Virus record (IMG/VR): IMGVR_UViG_3300046003_007336
Span: 134,513 to 198,512 of that record
Length of the DNA: 64,000 nucleotides
DNA from: a virus
Strand: one strand, 5' to 3'
Positions 374 through 6,535 of this stretch are shown here, in pieces; positions within the stretch are counted from its first letter, which is position 1, and every line of letters begins with the position of its first letter. Position numbers and translations under genes: made by a program. Under the pieces are notes generated by a model. That model was not told where the DNA came from, searched no databases, and saw only the letters and a program-made list of their open reading frames with translations.

Positions 374-1156
374 GTGGCACGACAAATGAAGCGCGCTAAC
401 GCCAAACGCGCTGACAAGCCTAACCCCCGCGAAGACCGCAACCAGTCCTATGGCCGCCAAGGTCAGCAACAGCGCGAAACCCGCGATGACAGTGCTGAAT
501 CGATGCGCCCCAAAAAGCGGGTTGAACTCCTCCCACGCAGCGTTGCTCAAGAGGATTACTGTGACGCTCTCCTCGACCCCGACAAGCACGTCGTGTTCGC
601 CATGGGCCCCGCAGGTTGCGGAAAAACCCTTCTCGCCACCCAGTATGCCGTCAAGGGTCTCCTCGACGGTAGCTTCGATAAAATCGTCATCACTCGTCCG
701 GCCGTCTCGGTCGATGAGCAGCACGGCTTCCTGCCAGGCGGCCTCGTAGAGAAAATGCAGCCGTGGATGATGCCCATCCTGGACGTCTTCAAAGAACACT
801 TCTCGCCCGCCCAGGTCGCGAAGATGATTCAGAACGAAGTCATCGAGATCGCACCGCTAGCCTTCATGCGTGGTCGGACGTTCAAGAACTCCATCATCAT
901 CGCCGACGAAATGCAGAACTCAACGACGAGCCAGACCAAAATGGTCCTGACCCGTATCGGCGAGAACTCGAAAATCCTCATCACGGGCGACCTCAAGCAA
1001 CACGACCGGGGCTTCGACACCAACGGTCTCAAGGATTTCGTTGAACGCCTTGAGAAGCGCGTCAGCCCATCGATTTCGGTCATCCGCTTCGGGAACTCAG
1101 ACGTGGAACGTCACCCCGTCATCGAAGACATTCTCGCCATCTACGGCGACGATTGA
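374..1156 (+). CDS. phoH: PhoH-family ATPase
   Basis: GPAGCGKT Walker A, RPAV, RGRTF, IIADEMQN, GDLKQHD, RHPVI motifs; GGAG RBS; TAAATA at 317-322. Confidence 0.95.
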   Translation: MARQMKRANAKRADKPNPREDRNQSYGRQGQQQRETRDDSAESMRPKKRVELLPRSVAQEDYCDALLDPDKHVVFAMGPAGCGKTLLATQYAVKGLLDGSFDKIVITRPAVSVDEQHGFLPGGLVEKMQPWMMPILDVFKEHFSPAQVAKMIQNEVIEIAPLAFMRGRTFKNSIIIADEMQNSTTSQTKMVLTRIGENSKILITGDLKQHDRGFDTNGLKDFVERLEKRVSPSISVIRFGNSDVERHPVIEDILAIYGDD

Positions 1157-1182: not shown

Positions 1183-1206
1183 GGCGCCCTTCGGGGCGCC
1201 TTTTTT
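1183..1206 (+). terminator. rho-independent terminator after phoH
   Basis: GGCGCCC-TTCG-GGGCGCC followed by T6. Confidence 0.9.
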
Positions 1207-1465
1207 ATAGGACGTCGATGACGTCCCCATCCGCGTCCAGATAGGTGATCGTGTAGCGGGGGTCCGACGTGGACATGCAAGACAGACAGCAAGCCACTAT
1301 CTCAACGGTGCCTACGGGGTCCTGGGAGGGGTCCCTGACGGCCTGAATGGTGGTTTGGCATGTCGGGCACCGAACCGTCAACATACAGTCGCAGCGGGCC
1401 GCCCTAGGGGCTCCACAACGCAGGCAGCGGACGTTCTGGTCTATCAGATGATCTATCGGAGTCAC
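1205..1465 (-). CDS. small Cys-rich (Zn-binding) hypothetical protein
   Basis: GGAGG RBS before GTG at 1465 (track start 1531 lies inside the RNA candidate); several CxxC motifs. Confidence 0.6.
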   Translation of the reverse strand: MTPIDHLIDQNVRCLRCGAPRAARCDCMLTVRCPTCQTTIQAVRDPSQDPVGTVEIVACCLSCMSTSDPRYTITYLDADGDVIDVL

Positions 1466-1486
1466 GAAATCCTCCAGAATTAAATC

Positions 1487-1830
1487 AAGGGCGAGCGGAT
1501 AGTCAGTCCACTCGCCCTTAGACCTTACCATCCCGCAAAGGATGATTCGGAGGCCTAGATAGGAGGCCTTGAAGTTTTTCGCTTCGGCGCACCCGTCCGA
1601 AGACAGATGTAATGCTTGGTGTCTGAGACGGTCTTCTAACCGCTAGCTGAGTATGGTTCAGCCATTTCCTCCACCACTGAACGCAGGGGACTCGGACTAC
1701 ATCCAGATCGTCTTGCGACGATCTCGAAGGTTCAATGTGCCGTTCCTCTTGCGAGGGGGCTTGGCTTCCCTTCCTTGAGCCCGAAGCTCTGGGTTGGGGT
1801 GGGTGGCTGCGCGGCCACCGCCTGAACAAC
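1487..1830 (-). ncRNA. candidate large structured non-coding RNA of unknown family
   Basis: About ten hairpins on minus strand including GCAA and C(UUCG)G tetraloops, G-U-compatible long-range stems, upstream promoter, no credible ORF. Confidence 0.7.
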
Positions 1831-1833
1831 TCC

Positions 1834-1862
1834 TTTCTAGCCAGACCCGATCAGGGGTGCAA
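1834..1862 (-). promoter_or_regulatory. sigma70-type promoter upstream of the RNA candidate
   Basis: TTGCAC-N17-TAGAAA on minus strand. Confidence 0.5.
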
Positions 1863-1875
1863 CTGGATTTTTCGG

Positions 1876-1916
1876 TTATCCACAGGCTACGAGTTATCCA
1901 CAGTTTCTGTGGGCAA
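1876..1916. promoter_or_regulatory. DnaA box cluster
   Basis: TTATCCACA at 1876-1884 and 1894-1902; degenerate inverted TTGCCCACA at 1908-1916. Confidence 0.65.
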
Positions 1917-2486
1917 ATATGCCCACTCTGGGAAACGAAGTTTGAAAGCGATCAGGTCTCCCTGCTTCTCGAAGAAGAGGGTGTGCTGGGCCGTGACCGC
2001 TCCCTTGAAATGCTCGTAGAAACCCCACAGGCCGCCCAGCGGGTTCGTCCGCGTGAACTCGCGATAGATGGTATTGTGATCGACCGTCGAGAGGTCACGG
2101 ACCTCGACGCCATAAAAGATTTTCCCCGCTGCCAGCATCTCCTGGTAGCGATCTTCGTTGAGGTAGTTGGTGTTGATCTCGCCTGCGGGCTGCCAGAATC
2201 GGTTGTCCCCCGTGCGGATGCGGGTGTCGCGGCACATCTGGATGACGCGCTTGGCCTGCTTGTAGTCTCCCAATTTGATGTGACGGCGCACGCTATCCAG
2301 CCACTGAAAGCGGATGTGTCGAAGATGGAGGTCGCCGTTCAGGCCGTCCTGGTCTTTACGGTAGTTCTCTTTCTCCGTCCGCATGTGATTGAGGTCGCGG
2401 TTGCAGCGGTCCCGAATTAGCGCAAGGCCGCGCCGCCCGCGCTCGCGCTTCCCAGCCCGCCATTCTGCTGCGGAGATGAACCTCAT
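1887..2486 (-). CDS. hypothetical protein with C-terminal AFKLRF motif
   Basis: 199-aa ORF with 4-nt overlap to the upstream gene. Confidence 0.7.
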   Translation of the reverse strand: MRFISAAEWRAGKRERGRRGLALIRDRCNRDLNHMRTEKENYRKDQDGLNGDLHLRHIRFQWLDSVRRHIKLGDYKQAKRVIQMCRDTRIRTGDNRFWQPAGEINTNYLNEDRYQEMLAAGKIFYGVEVRDLSTVDHNTIYREFTRTNPLGGLWGFYEHFKGAVTAQHTLFFEKQGDLIAFKLRFPEWAYLPTETVDNS

Positions 2487-3151
2487 TGGATATCGTCAAT
2501 CGGCGGCGTGCGCCACTCTGTCTGGAGCCACCGTTGGTCGGCCCGGCTCTTTTCGTCGAAGTGGTCACTCCCCGCTGTCTCCTCAAAGGTGAACTCTGAA
2601 CCGAGTTCGATGTGCTTGAGACGAACGTTAGACCAGCGATAGTAAAAGAGGTCGCGATCATCGAGCCTGAATACGAATGGCCGGATATACTGTTCGGAGA
2701 TCGAGTATTGACGCTTCTCACCAATAGATGGTGTCACGGTGCCGCGCCAGATGTCGTATATCCGTTTGCCATCCTCGGTAAAGACGGGGCGGAGGGCGGA
2801 GAGGAAATGCCCGGCGATGCGGCCACGAGGAAGTCGGTAGACGCTCTGGGTGGTCTTGGCGTATTCGAACAGCCCCTTGGTCGTTCGGGACACCACGACG
2901 TGTTGTTTTGGAAGAGTGATTGAAAGGGGGATACGGATTTCGTCGCGGTTCCACCGCTCGGCGGCTTCCCGGCCAGTCAGTTCGTTCCGGTTCTCGGCCA
3001 CAAGTGGTCCATCGCAGCAATTCGGCCGCGAGCACGAGACCCGCATGTTTATTCTGCTATAACTGTTGCCGGGTGCGAACGCCGAAGCCAGTCCCGGATA
3101 ATTGCCGCACCACGGGCAGGCGTTCATCACTGGCTTGATCTTCGGATACAT
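2483..3151 (-). CDS. hypothetical protein with N-terminal Lar-like Zn finger
   Basis: CPWCG...C..P.CC..GP...EAAERWNR resembles the Lar restriction-alleviation pattern. Confidence 0.55.
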   Translation of the reverse strand: MYPKIKPVMNACPWCGNYPGLASAFAPGNSYSRINMRVSCSRPNCCDGPLVAENRNELTGREAAERWNRDEIRIPLSITLPKQHVVVSRTTKGLFEYAKTTQSVYRLPRGRIAGHFLSALRPVFTEDGKRIYDIWRGTVTPSIGEKRQYSISEQYIRPFVFRLDDRDLFYYRWSNVRLKHIELGSEFTFEETAGSDHFDEKSRADQRWLQTEWRTPPIDDIQ

Positions 3152-3157
3152 CTTCCG

Positions 3158-3185
3158 GGTCTACCACACCGAATATACATGTCAA
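3158..3185 (-). promoter_or_regulatory. sigma70-type promoter, leaderless start
   Basis: TTGACA-N16-TAGACC, 6 nt before ATG 3151. Confidence 0.65.
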
Positions 3186-3187
3186 GC

Positions 3188-3219
3188 AAAAGAAAAGGGC
3201 CGCCCTTTCGAGCGGCCCC
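3188..3219 (-). terminator. terminator after major capsid gene
   Basis: GGGGCCGCTC-GAAA-GGGCGGCCCT followed by TTTCTTTT on minus strand. Confidence 0.9.
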
Positions 3220-3244
3220 CTCTTACCATCAGTAAGAACTGGTC

Positions 3245-4456
3245 TTAGATGAAGGTCAGGTTGGCGGTGTTGATACCGACCAGACCCAGGTAGTCAGCAG
3301 CGTTACCCAGCGAGTTCGCCGTGTTGGTCAGTTCGACGTAGCCGTAGCGCGTCATGAACGAAACAACCGGTTCCATCGTGTTGGGGTCGATGACGACGCC
3401 CGACGAGGTCAGCGGCACGTAGGGGCAGTAGAACGCGGCGGCGTCCATTTCGTTGCCCTTGTAGCCGACCAGAACCGGGGTTCCGTCCGAAGCGTACTGG
3501 TCAACGTAAACGCGCATCGTGTTGTTCAGGGTGCCGACGAACTTGGTGTTGGTCGGAGCCTCGAACACGCCTTCCGTGGTGCGGGCGAACGCCGAAGTGG
3601 TCGCCGACTGGAGGACGGTCAGAGCGGTCGGGGAAACGACAACCCAGTTACCGGCGCCACGACGGGTGCGGGCGGCGATCAGGTTGGCCTGACGGTTGAT
3701 CAGGATGGCCAGAGCAGCGTGAACGTCACCAACGAAGGTCGGGGTGCCGGTCTTGGCGTTCTGGTCGAACGTCGCGGTCGGAGCACCCGGCAGGGCGCGC
3801 AGCGAGACGAGGATTTCCTGGTCGATCTCGGCGGTGATTTCCTGAGCGAGGGCGCCCATGATTTCAGCCTCGATGTCAATGCCCTGCTGAGCTTGGGCGT
3901 CCTGGGCAGCTTCGAAGGTCCAGCGAGCCGCGAGCTTGCGGGTCTTGGCTTCAACAACTTCCTTCAGGATTTGGATGGAGATACGGTTACCCGCACGACC
4001 TTCCAGAGCAGCCGTCACAGCAGCCTTCGGGTTGGCGACGTTCTCGTTACCCGAGTAGTAGCGGGCGATGTCGAACGGCGACAGAGCTTCCGAACCAGCG
4101 GTCACGCCCGAGCCGTTCGTGGGAACGGTGTCGGCATAGCGAACGCGCAGGGTGTGGATTTGGGCAACCGGACCCGTCATCGGCTGGACGCCGATGATTT
4201 CGTTGGCGATGACGGTCGGCATGACGCGGCGGATAACCGGCAGGATGACCTTGTTCAGCGTGGCAACGTTGGCGGCCGAGGTGGCGCCCGAGGTAGCGGT
4301 TTCCATCAGAGCACGGCGGGTGTTATCCAGCACGGTCTCCATGATCTTCTTCTTGTTCGCGTTGAGCGAACCGTCGAAGTTGTGGGTCAGGTCGTTGCCT
4401 TCGCAAAGAGCTTGCTTGGTCGCCTGCCACTGGGATTCAAAAAGGTTCTTAGACAT
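3245..4456 (-). CDS. major capsid protein (T4 gp23-like)
   Basis: VQPMTGP, RKLAARWTFEAAQDA, AFYCPYVPL, FMTRYG motifs; strong codon bias. Confidence 0.95.
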   Translation of the reverse strand: MSKNLFESQWQATKQALCEGNDLTHNFDGSLNANKKKIMETVLDNTRRALMETATSGATSAANVATLNKVILPVIRRVMPTVIANEIIGVQPMTGPVAQIHTLRVRYADTVPTNGSGVTAGSEALSPFDIARYYSGNENVANPKAAVTAALEGRAGNRISIQILKEVVEAKTRKLAARWTFEAAQDAQAQQGIDIEAEIMGALAQEITAEIDQEILVSLRALPGAPTATFDQNAKTGTPTFVGDVHAALAILINRQANLIAARTRRGAGNWVVVSPTALTVLQSATTSAFARTTEGVFEAPTNTKFVGTLNNTMRVYVDQYASDGTPVLVGYKGNEMDAAAFYCPYVPLTSSGVVIDPNTMEPVVSFMTRYGYVELTNTANSLGNAADYLGLVGINTANLTFI

Positions 4457-5914: not shown

Positions 5915-6535
5915 TTAGAGCTTTTGAACCCAGTTCAGAAGCTCCTTGTGGAGGTGCTTCTGGGCCTTGGGGTCATCCATAACGGCCTCAGCAAGTGAGG
6001 AAATCATGTTTCCACGGCGGCCCTGCATGGCCTCGTAGACGGCCTTCGGATAAGCATCCGGGGCCGAGGGCTTCGCAACGATATCAACGGTGACGATCTC
6101 GAAATCTGAGACACGCCCTGAGTCATCAACATCACCTGAACCACGGCTTGAAACGCCGAGCTTGACGCCCGATTCCAAGAGGGTCTTGATGATGTTGCCC
6201 ATCGGCGTCGGCAGAATCTTGAGGCTGCCGTGACCGACGTTGTTCTCCATCCACATCTTGGTGATCATGTGTGAAACACGGTCGATGTTGATGGTGAGCT
6301 TATCAGGGTGATCACACTCGCCGAGAACACTGTCTCCGCGAGAGATGATCGAGTTTACGTCGTCTACTGCCTTTTCGATTTCTCGAACCGGGTAAACGCG
6401 ACCGTTAAGGTTGCGGACGCCGCCCTGGATGAACACACCCTTGAGGGTGAGGCTCTTTCCTTTGCCTTCGCCTTCGTCTTTTGCTTCGACGATGACGCCT
6501 GCTTGATCAAAGTTTAGTCTTTCTACTAGCAGCAT
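5915..6535 (-). CDS. prohead protease (T4 gp21-like)
   Basis: GVFIQG..RNLNGRVYP, LGECDHP, GVSSRGSG, DIVAKPSAPDAYP. Confidence 0.95.
   Translation of the reverse strand: MLLVERLNFDQAGVIVEAKDEGEGKGKSLTLKGVFIQGGVRNLNGRVYPVREIEKAVDDVNSIISRGDSVLGECDHPDKLTINIDRVSHMITKMWMENNVGHGSLKILPTPMGNIIKTLLESGVKLGVSSRGSGDVDDSGRVSDFEIVTVDIVAKPSAPDAYPKAVYEAMQGRRGNMISSLAEAVMDDPKAQKHLHKELLNWVQKL

Follow-up and report, generated by a model that had tools for sequence, protein, structure and literature searches.

The minus strand of a T4-like jumbo phage carries, at positions 1487-1830 of the stretch analysed, a 344-nt sequence that is probably a real new RNA element, being either the leader of the small gene p86 that follows it or a stand-alone RNA. 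A function at the RNA level, taken over both of these readings together, is likely, because the sense strand is unusually stable in two diverged copies, because a putative promoter and the predicted 5' end are kept across a change in coding status, because the core contains compensatory changes, and because no coding signal is present. The element lies outside every family of Rfam 15 and was found in two phages, the present one and that represented by the contig L209; it is a candidate for a new RNA family with a narrow distribution.

The window, i.e. the whole 64-kb stretch of DNA that was analysed, comprises bases 134513-198512 of a 198.5-kb IMG/VR record and lies at that record's end; the completeness of the record was estimated by CheckV as 44%. 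Its genes include those of the Gp23 major capsid protein and an S77 prohead protease, and complete genomes of 450-610 kb are among its nearest relatives when gp23 is compared (70-88% identity). The jumbo-phage origin that was proposed for the RNA in the initial annotation is supported. Elsewhere, the record encodes many tRNAs and a permuted, two-piece tmRNA of alphaproteobacterial type, judging by which the host is probably an alphaproteobacterium. The RNA belongs to a fast-evolving island (p222, p199, the RNA and p86) between the gp23 and phoH genes. The gp23 gene is closed by a strong canonical terminator (3222-3193), downstream of which a promoter with a perfect -35 hexamer (TTGACA, N16, TAGACC; 3185-3158) serves the hypothetical genes p222 and p199; a terminator scan found none between p199 and the RNA. 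The features of the locus are as follows.

374-1156, plus strand: phoH gene, convergent with the minus-strand island
1205-1465, minus strand: p86, a zinc-ribbon-like protein of 86 aa with 8 conserved cysteines; GTG start, Shine-Dalgarno sequence GGAGG at 1471-1475
1487-1830, minus strand: body of the structured non-coding RNA; predicted start near 1827-1830, 3' end past the hairpin at 1486
1834-1839, minus strand: putative -10 hexamer TAGAAA, 17 nt after the -35 hexamer; TAGGAC in L209
1857-1862, minus strand: putative -35 hexamer TTGCAC, identical in L209
1875-1884, minus strand: DnaA box 2, an exact match 18 bp after box 1 and 12 bp upstream of the -35 hexamer
1887-2486, minus strand: p199, a hypothetical protein with a coding score of 0.22, the 3' end of which overlaps DnaA box 1
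1893-1902, minus strand: DnaA box 1, TGTGGATAAC, an exact match that contains the reverse complement of the consensus TTATCCACA and overlaps the last codons of p199
3245-4456, minus strand: Gp23 major capsid protein
5915-6535, minus strand: S77 prohead protease

The minus strand of the 344-nt stretch has a predicted MFE of -141.5 kcal/mol (z = -4.16) that none of 100 dinucleotide shuffles equalled, versus a z of -1.90 for the plus strand, so that the claims of a strand-specific structure and of a fold better than shuffled sequence are both sustained. A z this low (-4.15) was reached by just one of 50 random 344-nt segments of this genome. After regression of MFE on G+C, the stretch ranks 40th among 2306 segments of the genome (top 1.7%), and its three stable GNRA or UUCG hairpins within 350 nt place it in the top 0.7% or so of minus-strand segments; the first rank for this hairpin count is held by the locus of the GOLLD RNA of the same phage.

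Codon log-odds are negative in all six frames of the stretch. A 103-codon ORF with a TTG start (1518-1829) has a score of -0.37 and a GC3 of 0.55, compared with 0.72 in the long genes of the phage, and is not kept at the homologous locus of L209; indeed no ORF is conserved across the spacer between the two phages. The gap therefore contains no credible ORF, as had been claimed, and no conserved protein of the kind named as a possible refutation. Covariance models of Rfam 15 (4227 families) gave no match at the gathering threshold anywhere in the 64-kb window, and a relaxed scan (E <= 10) of positions 1350-1950 gave just two matches at chance level (E of 8.7 and 9.2). The models left unmatched include those of ROOL, OLE, RNase P, 6S, SRP, riboswitches, the T-box, group I and II introns and small ribozymes. 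No tRNA or tmRNA was found in the window by ARAGORN, and the L209 spacer likewise has no Rfam 15 match. The initial annotation's failure to assign the sequence to a known RNA is upheld by these searches. A group I intron was considered and rejected, as there is no model match and p199 and p86 are separate complete ORFs, each with a homolog on L209.

When the minus strand was read directly, every local helix listed in the initial annotation was present at its position (1705-1724 and 1745-1756, both with GCAA loops, 1593-1606 with a UUCG loop, 1777-1789, 1802-1819, 1646-1662, 1551-1569 and 1529-1544). So was the terminal stem, to which the terminator scan assigns 14 bp at 1520-1486 and a U-rich tail. 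The elements of the RNA, all on the minus strand, are listed from 5' to 3'.

1802-1819, minus strand: P2 hairpin, GGUGGC/GCCACC with loop CGCGCA, in the predicted fold
1768-1798, minus strand: P3 hairpin, in both MFE and centroid folds, forming with P4 a variable 5' domain (1739-1798)
1739-1760, minus strand: P4 hairpin with a GCAA loop, in both MFE and centroid folds
1705-1724, minus strand: P5 hairpin, a perfect 8-bp stem with a GCAA tetraloop, in the predicted fold
1641-1700, minus strand: conserved core GUCCGAG...GCG...GGUGGAGG, from RNAalifold on a sequence-only alignment with L209
1667-1697, minus strand: P6* hairpin of the core
1644-1664, minus strand: P7 hairpin of the core
1628-1643, minus strand: P8 hairpin, in the predicted fold
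1618-1622, minus strand: conserved ACACC between P8 and P9
1590-1609, minus strand: P9 hairpin with a UUCG loop, in the predicted fold
1551-1569, minus strand: P10 hairpin, in the predicted fold
1523-1550, minus strand: P11 hairpin, in the predicted fold
1486-1520, minus strand: 3' hairpin, 14 bp with a U-rich tail, terminator-like, 20 nt ahead of the p86 start codon

The 3' hairpin has the properties of an intrinsic terminator (14-bp stem with 8 GC pairs, at least 5 T in 8 positions of the tail). The sole strain SNP in the RNA, A to G at 1620, falls within the conserved ACACC. Two long-range helices that had been proposed and that gave the RNA its multi-domain look (1704-1696 with 1613-1605, and 1827-1822 with 1735-1730) do exist as complementarities in the sequence, but their pair probabilities are 0.003-0.04, their enforcement costs 4.0-4.2 kcal/mol singly and 6.4 kcal/mol together, and a reading of the alignment with L209 reveals no counterpart there. 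Two other helices, one closing the 5' end with CGAA(U/C)C and the other pairing GG(A)UGU with ACACC, were rejected, their enforcement costing about 4-12 kcal/mol. The P2 loop is self-complementary in both phages (CGCGCA here, GUGCACA in L209), which is compatible with a kissing dimer and may be taken as no more than a lead.

Relatives of the RNA were sought widely. No relative was found by blastn or megablast among 50,697 phage records, by nhmmer at 80 gp23-linked loci, about 100 loci with pairs of DnaA boxes and 80 PhoH-linked loci, or by degenerate motif scans of JGI metagenomes and GTDB genomes; the sole match of a degenerate motif in IMG/VR (L208) was rejected as a chance match within coding DNA. 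In five complete related jumbo genomes, blastn gave only chance matches of 14-23 nt. A 308-nt covariance model (R1) found nothing in 32 related records and no paralog in the phage's own genome, and a model of the core (R2) found nothing in 39 records. No paralog or homolog was found in eight complete related jumbo genomes; therefore, this is not a widespread class of RNA. The only relative is on L209, a 2.9-kb Logan contig that was reached through P0006, a remote homolog of p199. The homolog search proposed in the initial annotation was thus negative when conducted directly with nhmmer and BLASTn, but yielded by way of p199 one syntenic homolog with compensatory changes.

The gene order of L209 (a p199-like gene, a 272-nt spacer, a p86-like ORF of 91 aa and a convergent phoH gene) is the same as here. 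The two PhoH proteins are 86% identical (79% at the DNA level) and the island has diverged, so L209 is fairly closely related to the present phage, with fast evolution in the island. The sense strand of the L209 spacer has a z of -3.14, with none of 200 shuffles as good, and the antisense strand a z of -1.41. Over their lengths the two RNA bodies are collinearly similar (global score z = 4.4, with none of 300 shuffles as high); taken by itself, the best local segment does not reach significance (equalled by 28 of 300 shuffles).

Structural conservation is clearest in the core, a block of 60 alignment columns (1641-1700 of the window) with a single 2-nt gap. RNAalifold predicts two hairpins in which all 12 pairs are kept and five are changed on both sides (one U-A to C-G, one C-G to U-A, and three in P7), whereas no such changes were counted in any of six slid controls; this structure was derived from the same alignment on which it was tested, and the shuffle control (14/500) is weak with two rows. 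Whole-length MAFFT alignments of the two sequences did not reach significance (SCI 0.22-0.31, alifold z of -0.9 to -2.6). Of the covariation anticipated in the initial annotation, the part in the core is therefore seen as double changes in excess of the controls, but the part over the full length, with two sequences, is not significant. Imposing the RNA's own local structure on L209 left pairing intact in 11 of the 18 double changes, compared with 2-9 in slid controls, and most single-sided changes broke pairs. When P2, P10-P11 and the 3' hairpin were aligned block by block with MAFFT, the alignments were incompatible with the structures.

The hairpins outside the core have been kept to different degrees. 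Loops predicted independently in the two sequences coincide within four alignment columns for P2, P5, P6*, P11 and the 3' hairpin. P2 has an L209 counterpart at the same alignment position, with loop centres 1.5 columns apart. The P3-P4 domain is missing from L209 as one gap of about 63 columns. P5 is represented by a hairpin in another register (three of its eight pairs being kept column for column), P8 is not kept in register, and P9, the UUCG hairpin, is missing. Counterparts of P10 and P11 are of like size and in the same order, that of P11 with loop centres one column apart and that of P10 identifiable by position only. At the position of the 3' hairpin, L209 has a hairpin without a U tail, which abuts the Shine-Dalgarno sequence and start of the p86 homolog as it does here.

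Upstream of the predicted RNA start, the promoter postulated in the initial annotation is a putative one that gains support from L209. Hexamers separated by N17 are present, and the -35 hexamer and start sequence are kept in L209, but the match to the E. coli consensus is weak (by hand count, three of six positions at -35 and four of six at -10) and the sequence fails a promoter scan. Its -10 hexamer TAGAAA is similar to the TAGACC that stands behind the perfect TTGACA ahead of p222. In L209, the identical TTGCAC is followed 17 nt later by a -10 hexamer of the TAG type, and both copies have UUGUUC(A/G)GG at the predicted start. TTGCAC is located inside the p199-like ORF in L209 and is non-coding here; therefore, its conservation is not due to a coding constraint.

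The DnaA-box 9-mer TTATCCACA occurs exactly four times in the whole 198.5 kb, two of these occurrences being those upstream of the RNA. L209 has one (709-717) at the equivalent place, with about the same spacing to TTGCAC by hand count. A third exact box of the present phage is at C1:86408, about 40 bp upstream of a promoter (TTGACC, N17, TATAGT), and is part of the same 13-mer, CTGTGGATAACTC, as is present ahead of the RNA; the only place where this 13-mer recurs is there, in front of the promoter from which the GOLLD RNA of the phage would be made. The RNA behind that box matches GOLLD (RF02032) in its 3' half, over the full length of the model, at 116.6 bits (E = 4.8e-31), which is below the gathering threshold of 150. 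Two ORF-free structured RNAs of one phage thus have a consensus DnaA box in common, oriented alike, a similarity that is suggestive but was recognised post hoc. A wider similarity of the two promoter regions was considered and rejected, since it ends at the 13-mer, as was the notion that RNA genes of related phages generally have DnaA boxes, since the exact boxes of those phages are mostly in coding sequence, with one upstream of a tRNA cluster.

The 3' hairpin is followed by 10 nt, the Shine-Dalgarno sequence GGAGG and the GTG start of p86, and the 20 nt between hairpin and gene leave no room for a promoter of its own. The frame of p86 is the best of six, with a GC3 of 0.72, and the protein is 51% identical to the 91-aa protein of L209, with eight of eight cysteines kept; by these sequence characteristics p86 is a real conserved gene. 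The start codon of the L209 homolog is likely the TTG preceded by GGAG that aligns with the GTG here. Scans of IMG/VR, the records of relatives and GTDB genomes with a p86 profile found no homologs besides that of L209, and the AlphaFold model of p86 has a pLDDT of 45. P0006 is the sole relative of p199 in an exhaustive phmmer search (29% identity, E = 2.5e-7), and an Atlas search with p199 returned unnamed viral clusters only, all below 0.9. In a word-indexed set of 5.8 billion proteins, p199, p86 and p222 are all ORFans; other contigs that bear them are from the same phage in other samples. The only match of the flanking proteins in Pfam, PHROGs and PADLOC was a sub-threshold Lar-like zinc ribbon in p222.

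The reading towards which there is a slight lean, at somewhat less than even chance, is that the RNA is an attenuator-type leader of p86 whose terminated form accumulates. To the structure signal, the absence of coding and the one diverged syntenic copy with kept promoter elements and compensatory changes in the core, this reading would add transcript ends, control by DnaA and a cis-regulatory role. Transcription would start at about 1827-1830 from the weak sigma-70-type promoter TTGCAC, N17, TAGAAA, and initiation would probably be gated by host DnaA, given the two consensus boxes just upstream. The resulting RNA of about 340 nt is predicted to fold into a row of about ten hairpins around the core at 1641-1700, and may be that part of the p86 transcription unit which lies next to the promoter and is bounded by the terminator, ending in the 14-bp hairpin 20 nt before p86. 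Its fold would set how much transcription or translation reaches p86, and the terminated form would accumulate as a stable RNA of about 340 nt. The lean derives from two observations, namely that p86 lacks space for a promoter and that the L209 hairpin is not a canonical terminator, from which it follows that the RNA should at least sometimes form the beginning of the p86 transcript. Neither an antiterminator nor a ligand pocket could be recognised for such a leader, and no known riboswitch or T-box model matches. The putative promoter fails the scan and no terminator was found between p199 and the RNA, so the RNA may be no more than a 3' UTR or spacer belonging to the p222-p199 operon. The synteny with p86 may also reflect only common descent, PhoH being 86% identical between the two phages.

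The RNA could instead be stand-alone, acting in trans or structurally, whether as a scaffold, as a decoy or within an RNP (perhaps with p86), and similar in kind to GOLLD and ROOL; it would then be expressed from a promoter of its own, end at its own terminator and yield a stable product of about 340 nt, read-through into p86 being incidental. This is possible but on the whole rather unlikely. It accords with the terminator-like stem and U-rich tail of the 3' hairpin, with the GNRA and UUCG tetraloops, with the gain or loss of whole hairpin domains between copies as in large ncRNAs, and with the self-complementary P2 loops, as well as with the company that the RNA keeps in this genome: GOLLD behind the same DnaA-box 13-mer, the two-piece tmRNA and the many tRNAs. 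The lack of a U tail in L209, where read-through into p86 is therefore required, speaks against this reading, as do the lack of a separate p86 promoter and the absence of the RNA from the eight related genomes. A bolder form of the stand-alone reading is distinctly improbable: that a new class of ornate RNA is made alongside GOLLD under the same promoter module sensing host DnaA, and self-associates through the palindromic P2 loop, perhaps with p86, into a dimeric or higher-order particle. If true, it would link the replication state of the host to the assembly of phage RNA.

The two DnaA boxes could also mark a replication element, in which they and the promoter would constitute an origin and the transcript would prime replication through an R-loop or activate it, in the manner of T4 oriF/oriG, ColE1 RNA II or the activation of ori-lambda. 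The boxes are exact, 18 bp apart and directly upstream of the putative promoter, one is kept in L209, pairs with the same period are found on about 100 stretches of viral contigs (many in multi-box clusters), and cumulative GC skew has a local minimum at about 134-136 kb of the record. The global skew minimum, however, is near 100 kb, away from the RNA locus, in a record that is less than half complete; no AT-rich unwinding element is present, and the transcribed region has a G+C content of 57% and ends in a terminator-like hairpin. The same box precedes GOLLD, which is an RNA gene, and this speaks for control of transcription. A role in replication is very improbable. The remaining alternative is that there is no function at the RNA level: the region would be a fast-evolving spacer in which the hairpins are terminators, DNA inverted repeats or remnants of decayed genes, and the likeness to L209 would be residual descent. 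The non-significant covariation over the full length, the many one-sided changes that break pairs, the modest rank of the MFE when corrected for G+C only, the fast-evolving ORFans on either side and the non-significance of the best local similarity taken alone are all in keeping with this. Repeats at the DNA level would be symmetric, however, whereas both copies are far more stable on the sense than on the antisense strand; the core has five double compensatory changes versus none in slid controls; and the -35 hexamer and 5' end have been kept across the change in coding status. Synonymous sites are estimated from PhoH (79% of nucleotides at 86% of amino acids) to be near saturation, so neutral DNA should not have kept the collinear similarity observed. 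A lack of RNA-level function is accordingly unlikely.

Large structured RNAs are increasingly being recognised in jumbo phages, and in this genome GOLLD is accompanied by a two-piece tmRNA, many tRNAs and several further candidates. If a second structured RNA, ORF-free and driven by a promoter, does share a DnaA-box module with GOLLD, it would be the first hint of regulation of such RNAs through the host replication initiator, and would offer a compact, experimentally tractable example of about 340 nt beside a small zinc-ribbon protein. The claim can be tested either way, since the RNA is available in two diverged copies, its core is defined, its ends are predicted, and the samples of origin are named (SRR35488161, SRR27420180 and JGI 3300042889, and SRR25399969 for L209).

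In kind, the RNA is closest to GOLLD (RF02032) and ROOL. Like them, it is encoded by a phage, lacks ORFs and has many hairpins capped by tetraloops, a promoter (putative in this case) and a terminal hairpin; unlike them, it is less than half their size, matches neither model in sequence or structure, is known from two phages, and is located directly ahead of a protein gene and not near tRNAs. GOLLD and ROOL are reported to form RNA-only multimers by cryo-EM in a preprint (bioRxiv 10.1101/2024.12.08.627333).

The self-complementary P2 loop (GCGC here, GUGCAC in L209) has a formal likeness to that of a dimerising RNA. The HIV-1 dimerisation initiation site has kissing loops of the sequence GCGCGC or GUGCAC, and the changes of G to U and C to A between the two phages similarly keep the palindrome; the likeness is formal only, and short loop palindromes are common by chance. 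Systems linked to DnaA include the DnaA stimulation of lambda pR, the DnaA-regulated promoters of Caulobacter, and the primer transcripts of T4 oriF/oriG. The arrangement of consensus boxes just upstream of a weak -35 hexamer, kept in L209, looks like that of DnaA-dependent promoters and origins; unlike such origins, it has no unwinding element, and its transcript would end in a hairpin. In layout, the locus resembles that of attenuating leaders (riboswitch, T-box or protein-binding), in that a promoter, a long structured 5' region and a strong hairpin are followed within 20 nt by a Shine-Dalgarno sequence and a small gene, although it matches no aptamer model and has no identified mutually exclusive antiterminator. 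The RNA measures 270-345 nt and has gained or lost hairpin domains as a whole, so that it is larger and more plastic than most leaders; if it is one, a lytic phage would have a cis-regulator of unusual size and plasticity.

The segment between the major capsid gene gp23 and phoH, read from sequence comparison, is diverging much faster than its flanks. Identity to the corresponding products of a 2.9-kb contig from a relative with the same gene order (L209) is 29% for p199 and 51-52% for p86, versus 86% for PhoH, and the p222-p199-RNA-p86 segment as a whole is missing from every IMG/VR relative examined. The N-terminus of p222 resembles a Lar-like zinc ribbon at a sub-threshold score (E 0.027). 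Other samples supplied four almost identical copies of the RNA, and the sole variant among them is A to G at window position 1620 (minus strand), within the conserved ACACC pentamer. Features of this segment and of the wider phage genome are as follows.

Window 1205-3151, minus strand: p222, p199, the RNA and p86, between gp23 and phoH
Window 3158-3222, minus strand: canonical terminator followed by a promoter, between gp23 and p222
G000:C1:86459-87340 (L082:2460-3340), outside the window: GOLLD RNA, from its RF02032 match
G000:C1:76105-76554 (L094:17605-18054): permuted (two-piece) tmRNA, alphaproteobacterial-type

The terminator 3' of gp23 is strong (13-bp stem and U tract) and is directly followed by TTGACA, N16, TAGACC, a very short leader and p222; this arrangement suggests that the phage uses TAGA-type -10 elements.

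Elsewhere in the record, of 50 randomly sampled 344-nt windows, the two with the lowest shuffle z-scores (-3.56 and -4.15) fall at G000:C1:43058-45430 (plus strand, outside the window), and by folding prediction this may be another strongly structured region. Antisense to gp23, window 3889-4339 (plus strand) carries four GNRA/UNCG-capped hairpins in 350 nt, a density second genome-wide to that of GOLLD.

The 3' half of the ~830-nt GOLLD RNA matches the full length of RF02032 at 116.6 bits (E 4.8e-31), under the gathering score of 150. A hairpin forms its 3' end, a putative promoter (TTGACC, N17, TATAGT) precedes it, and an exact DnaA box lies within CTGTGGATAACTC, ~40 bp upstream of the -35 element. 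In a complete 453-kb relative (L206, G004:C1:406957-409966), an exact TGTGGATAAC lies ~130 bp upstream of a promoter (TTGACA, N17, TATAAA) driving a tRNA cluster, and may be a further DnaA box beside a stable-RNA promoter. At least 14 tRNA genes are clustered in L093-L095 of the present phage; together with the alphaproteobacterial-type permuted tmRNA, these suggest an alphaproteobacterial host.
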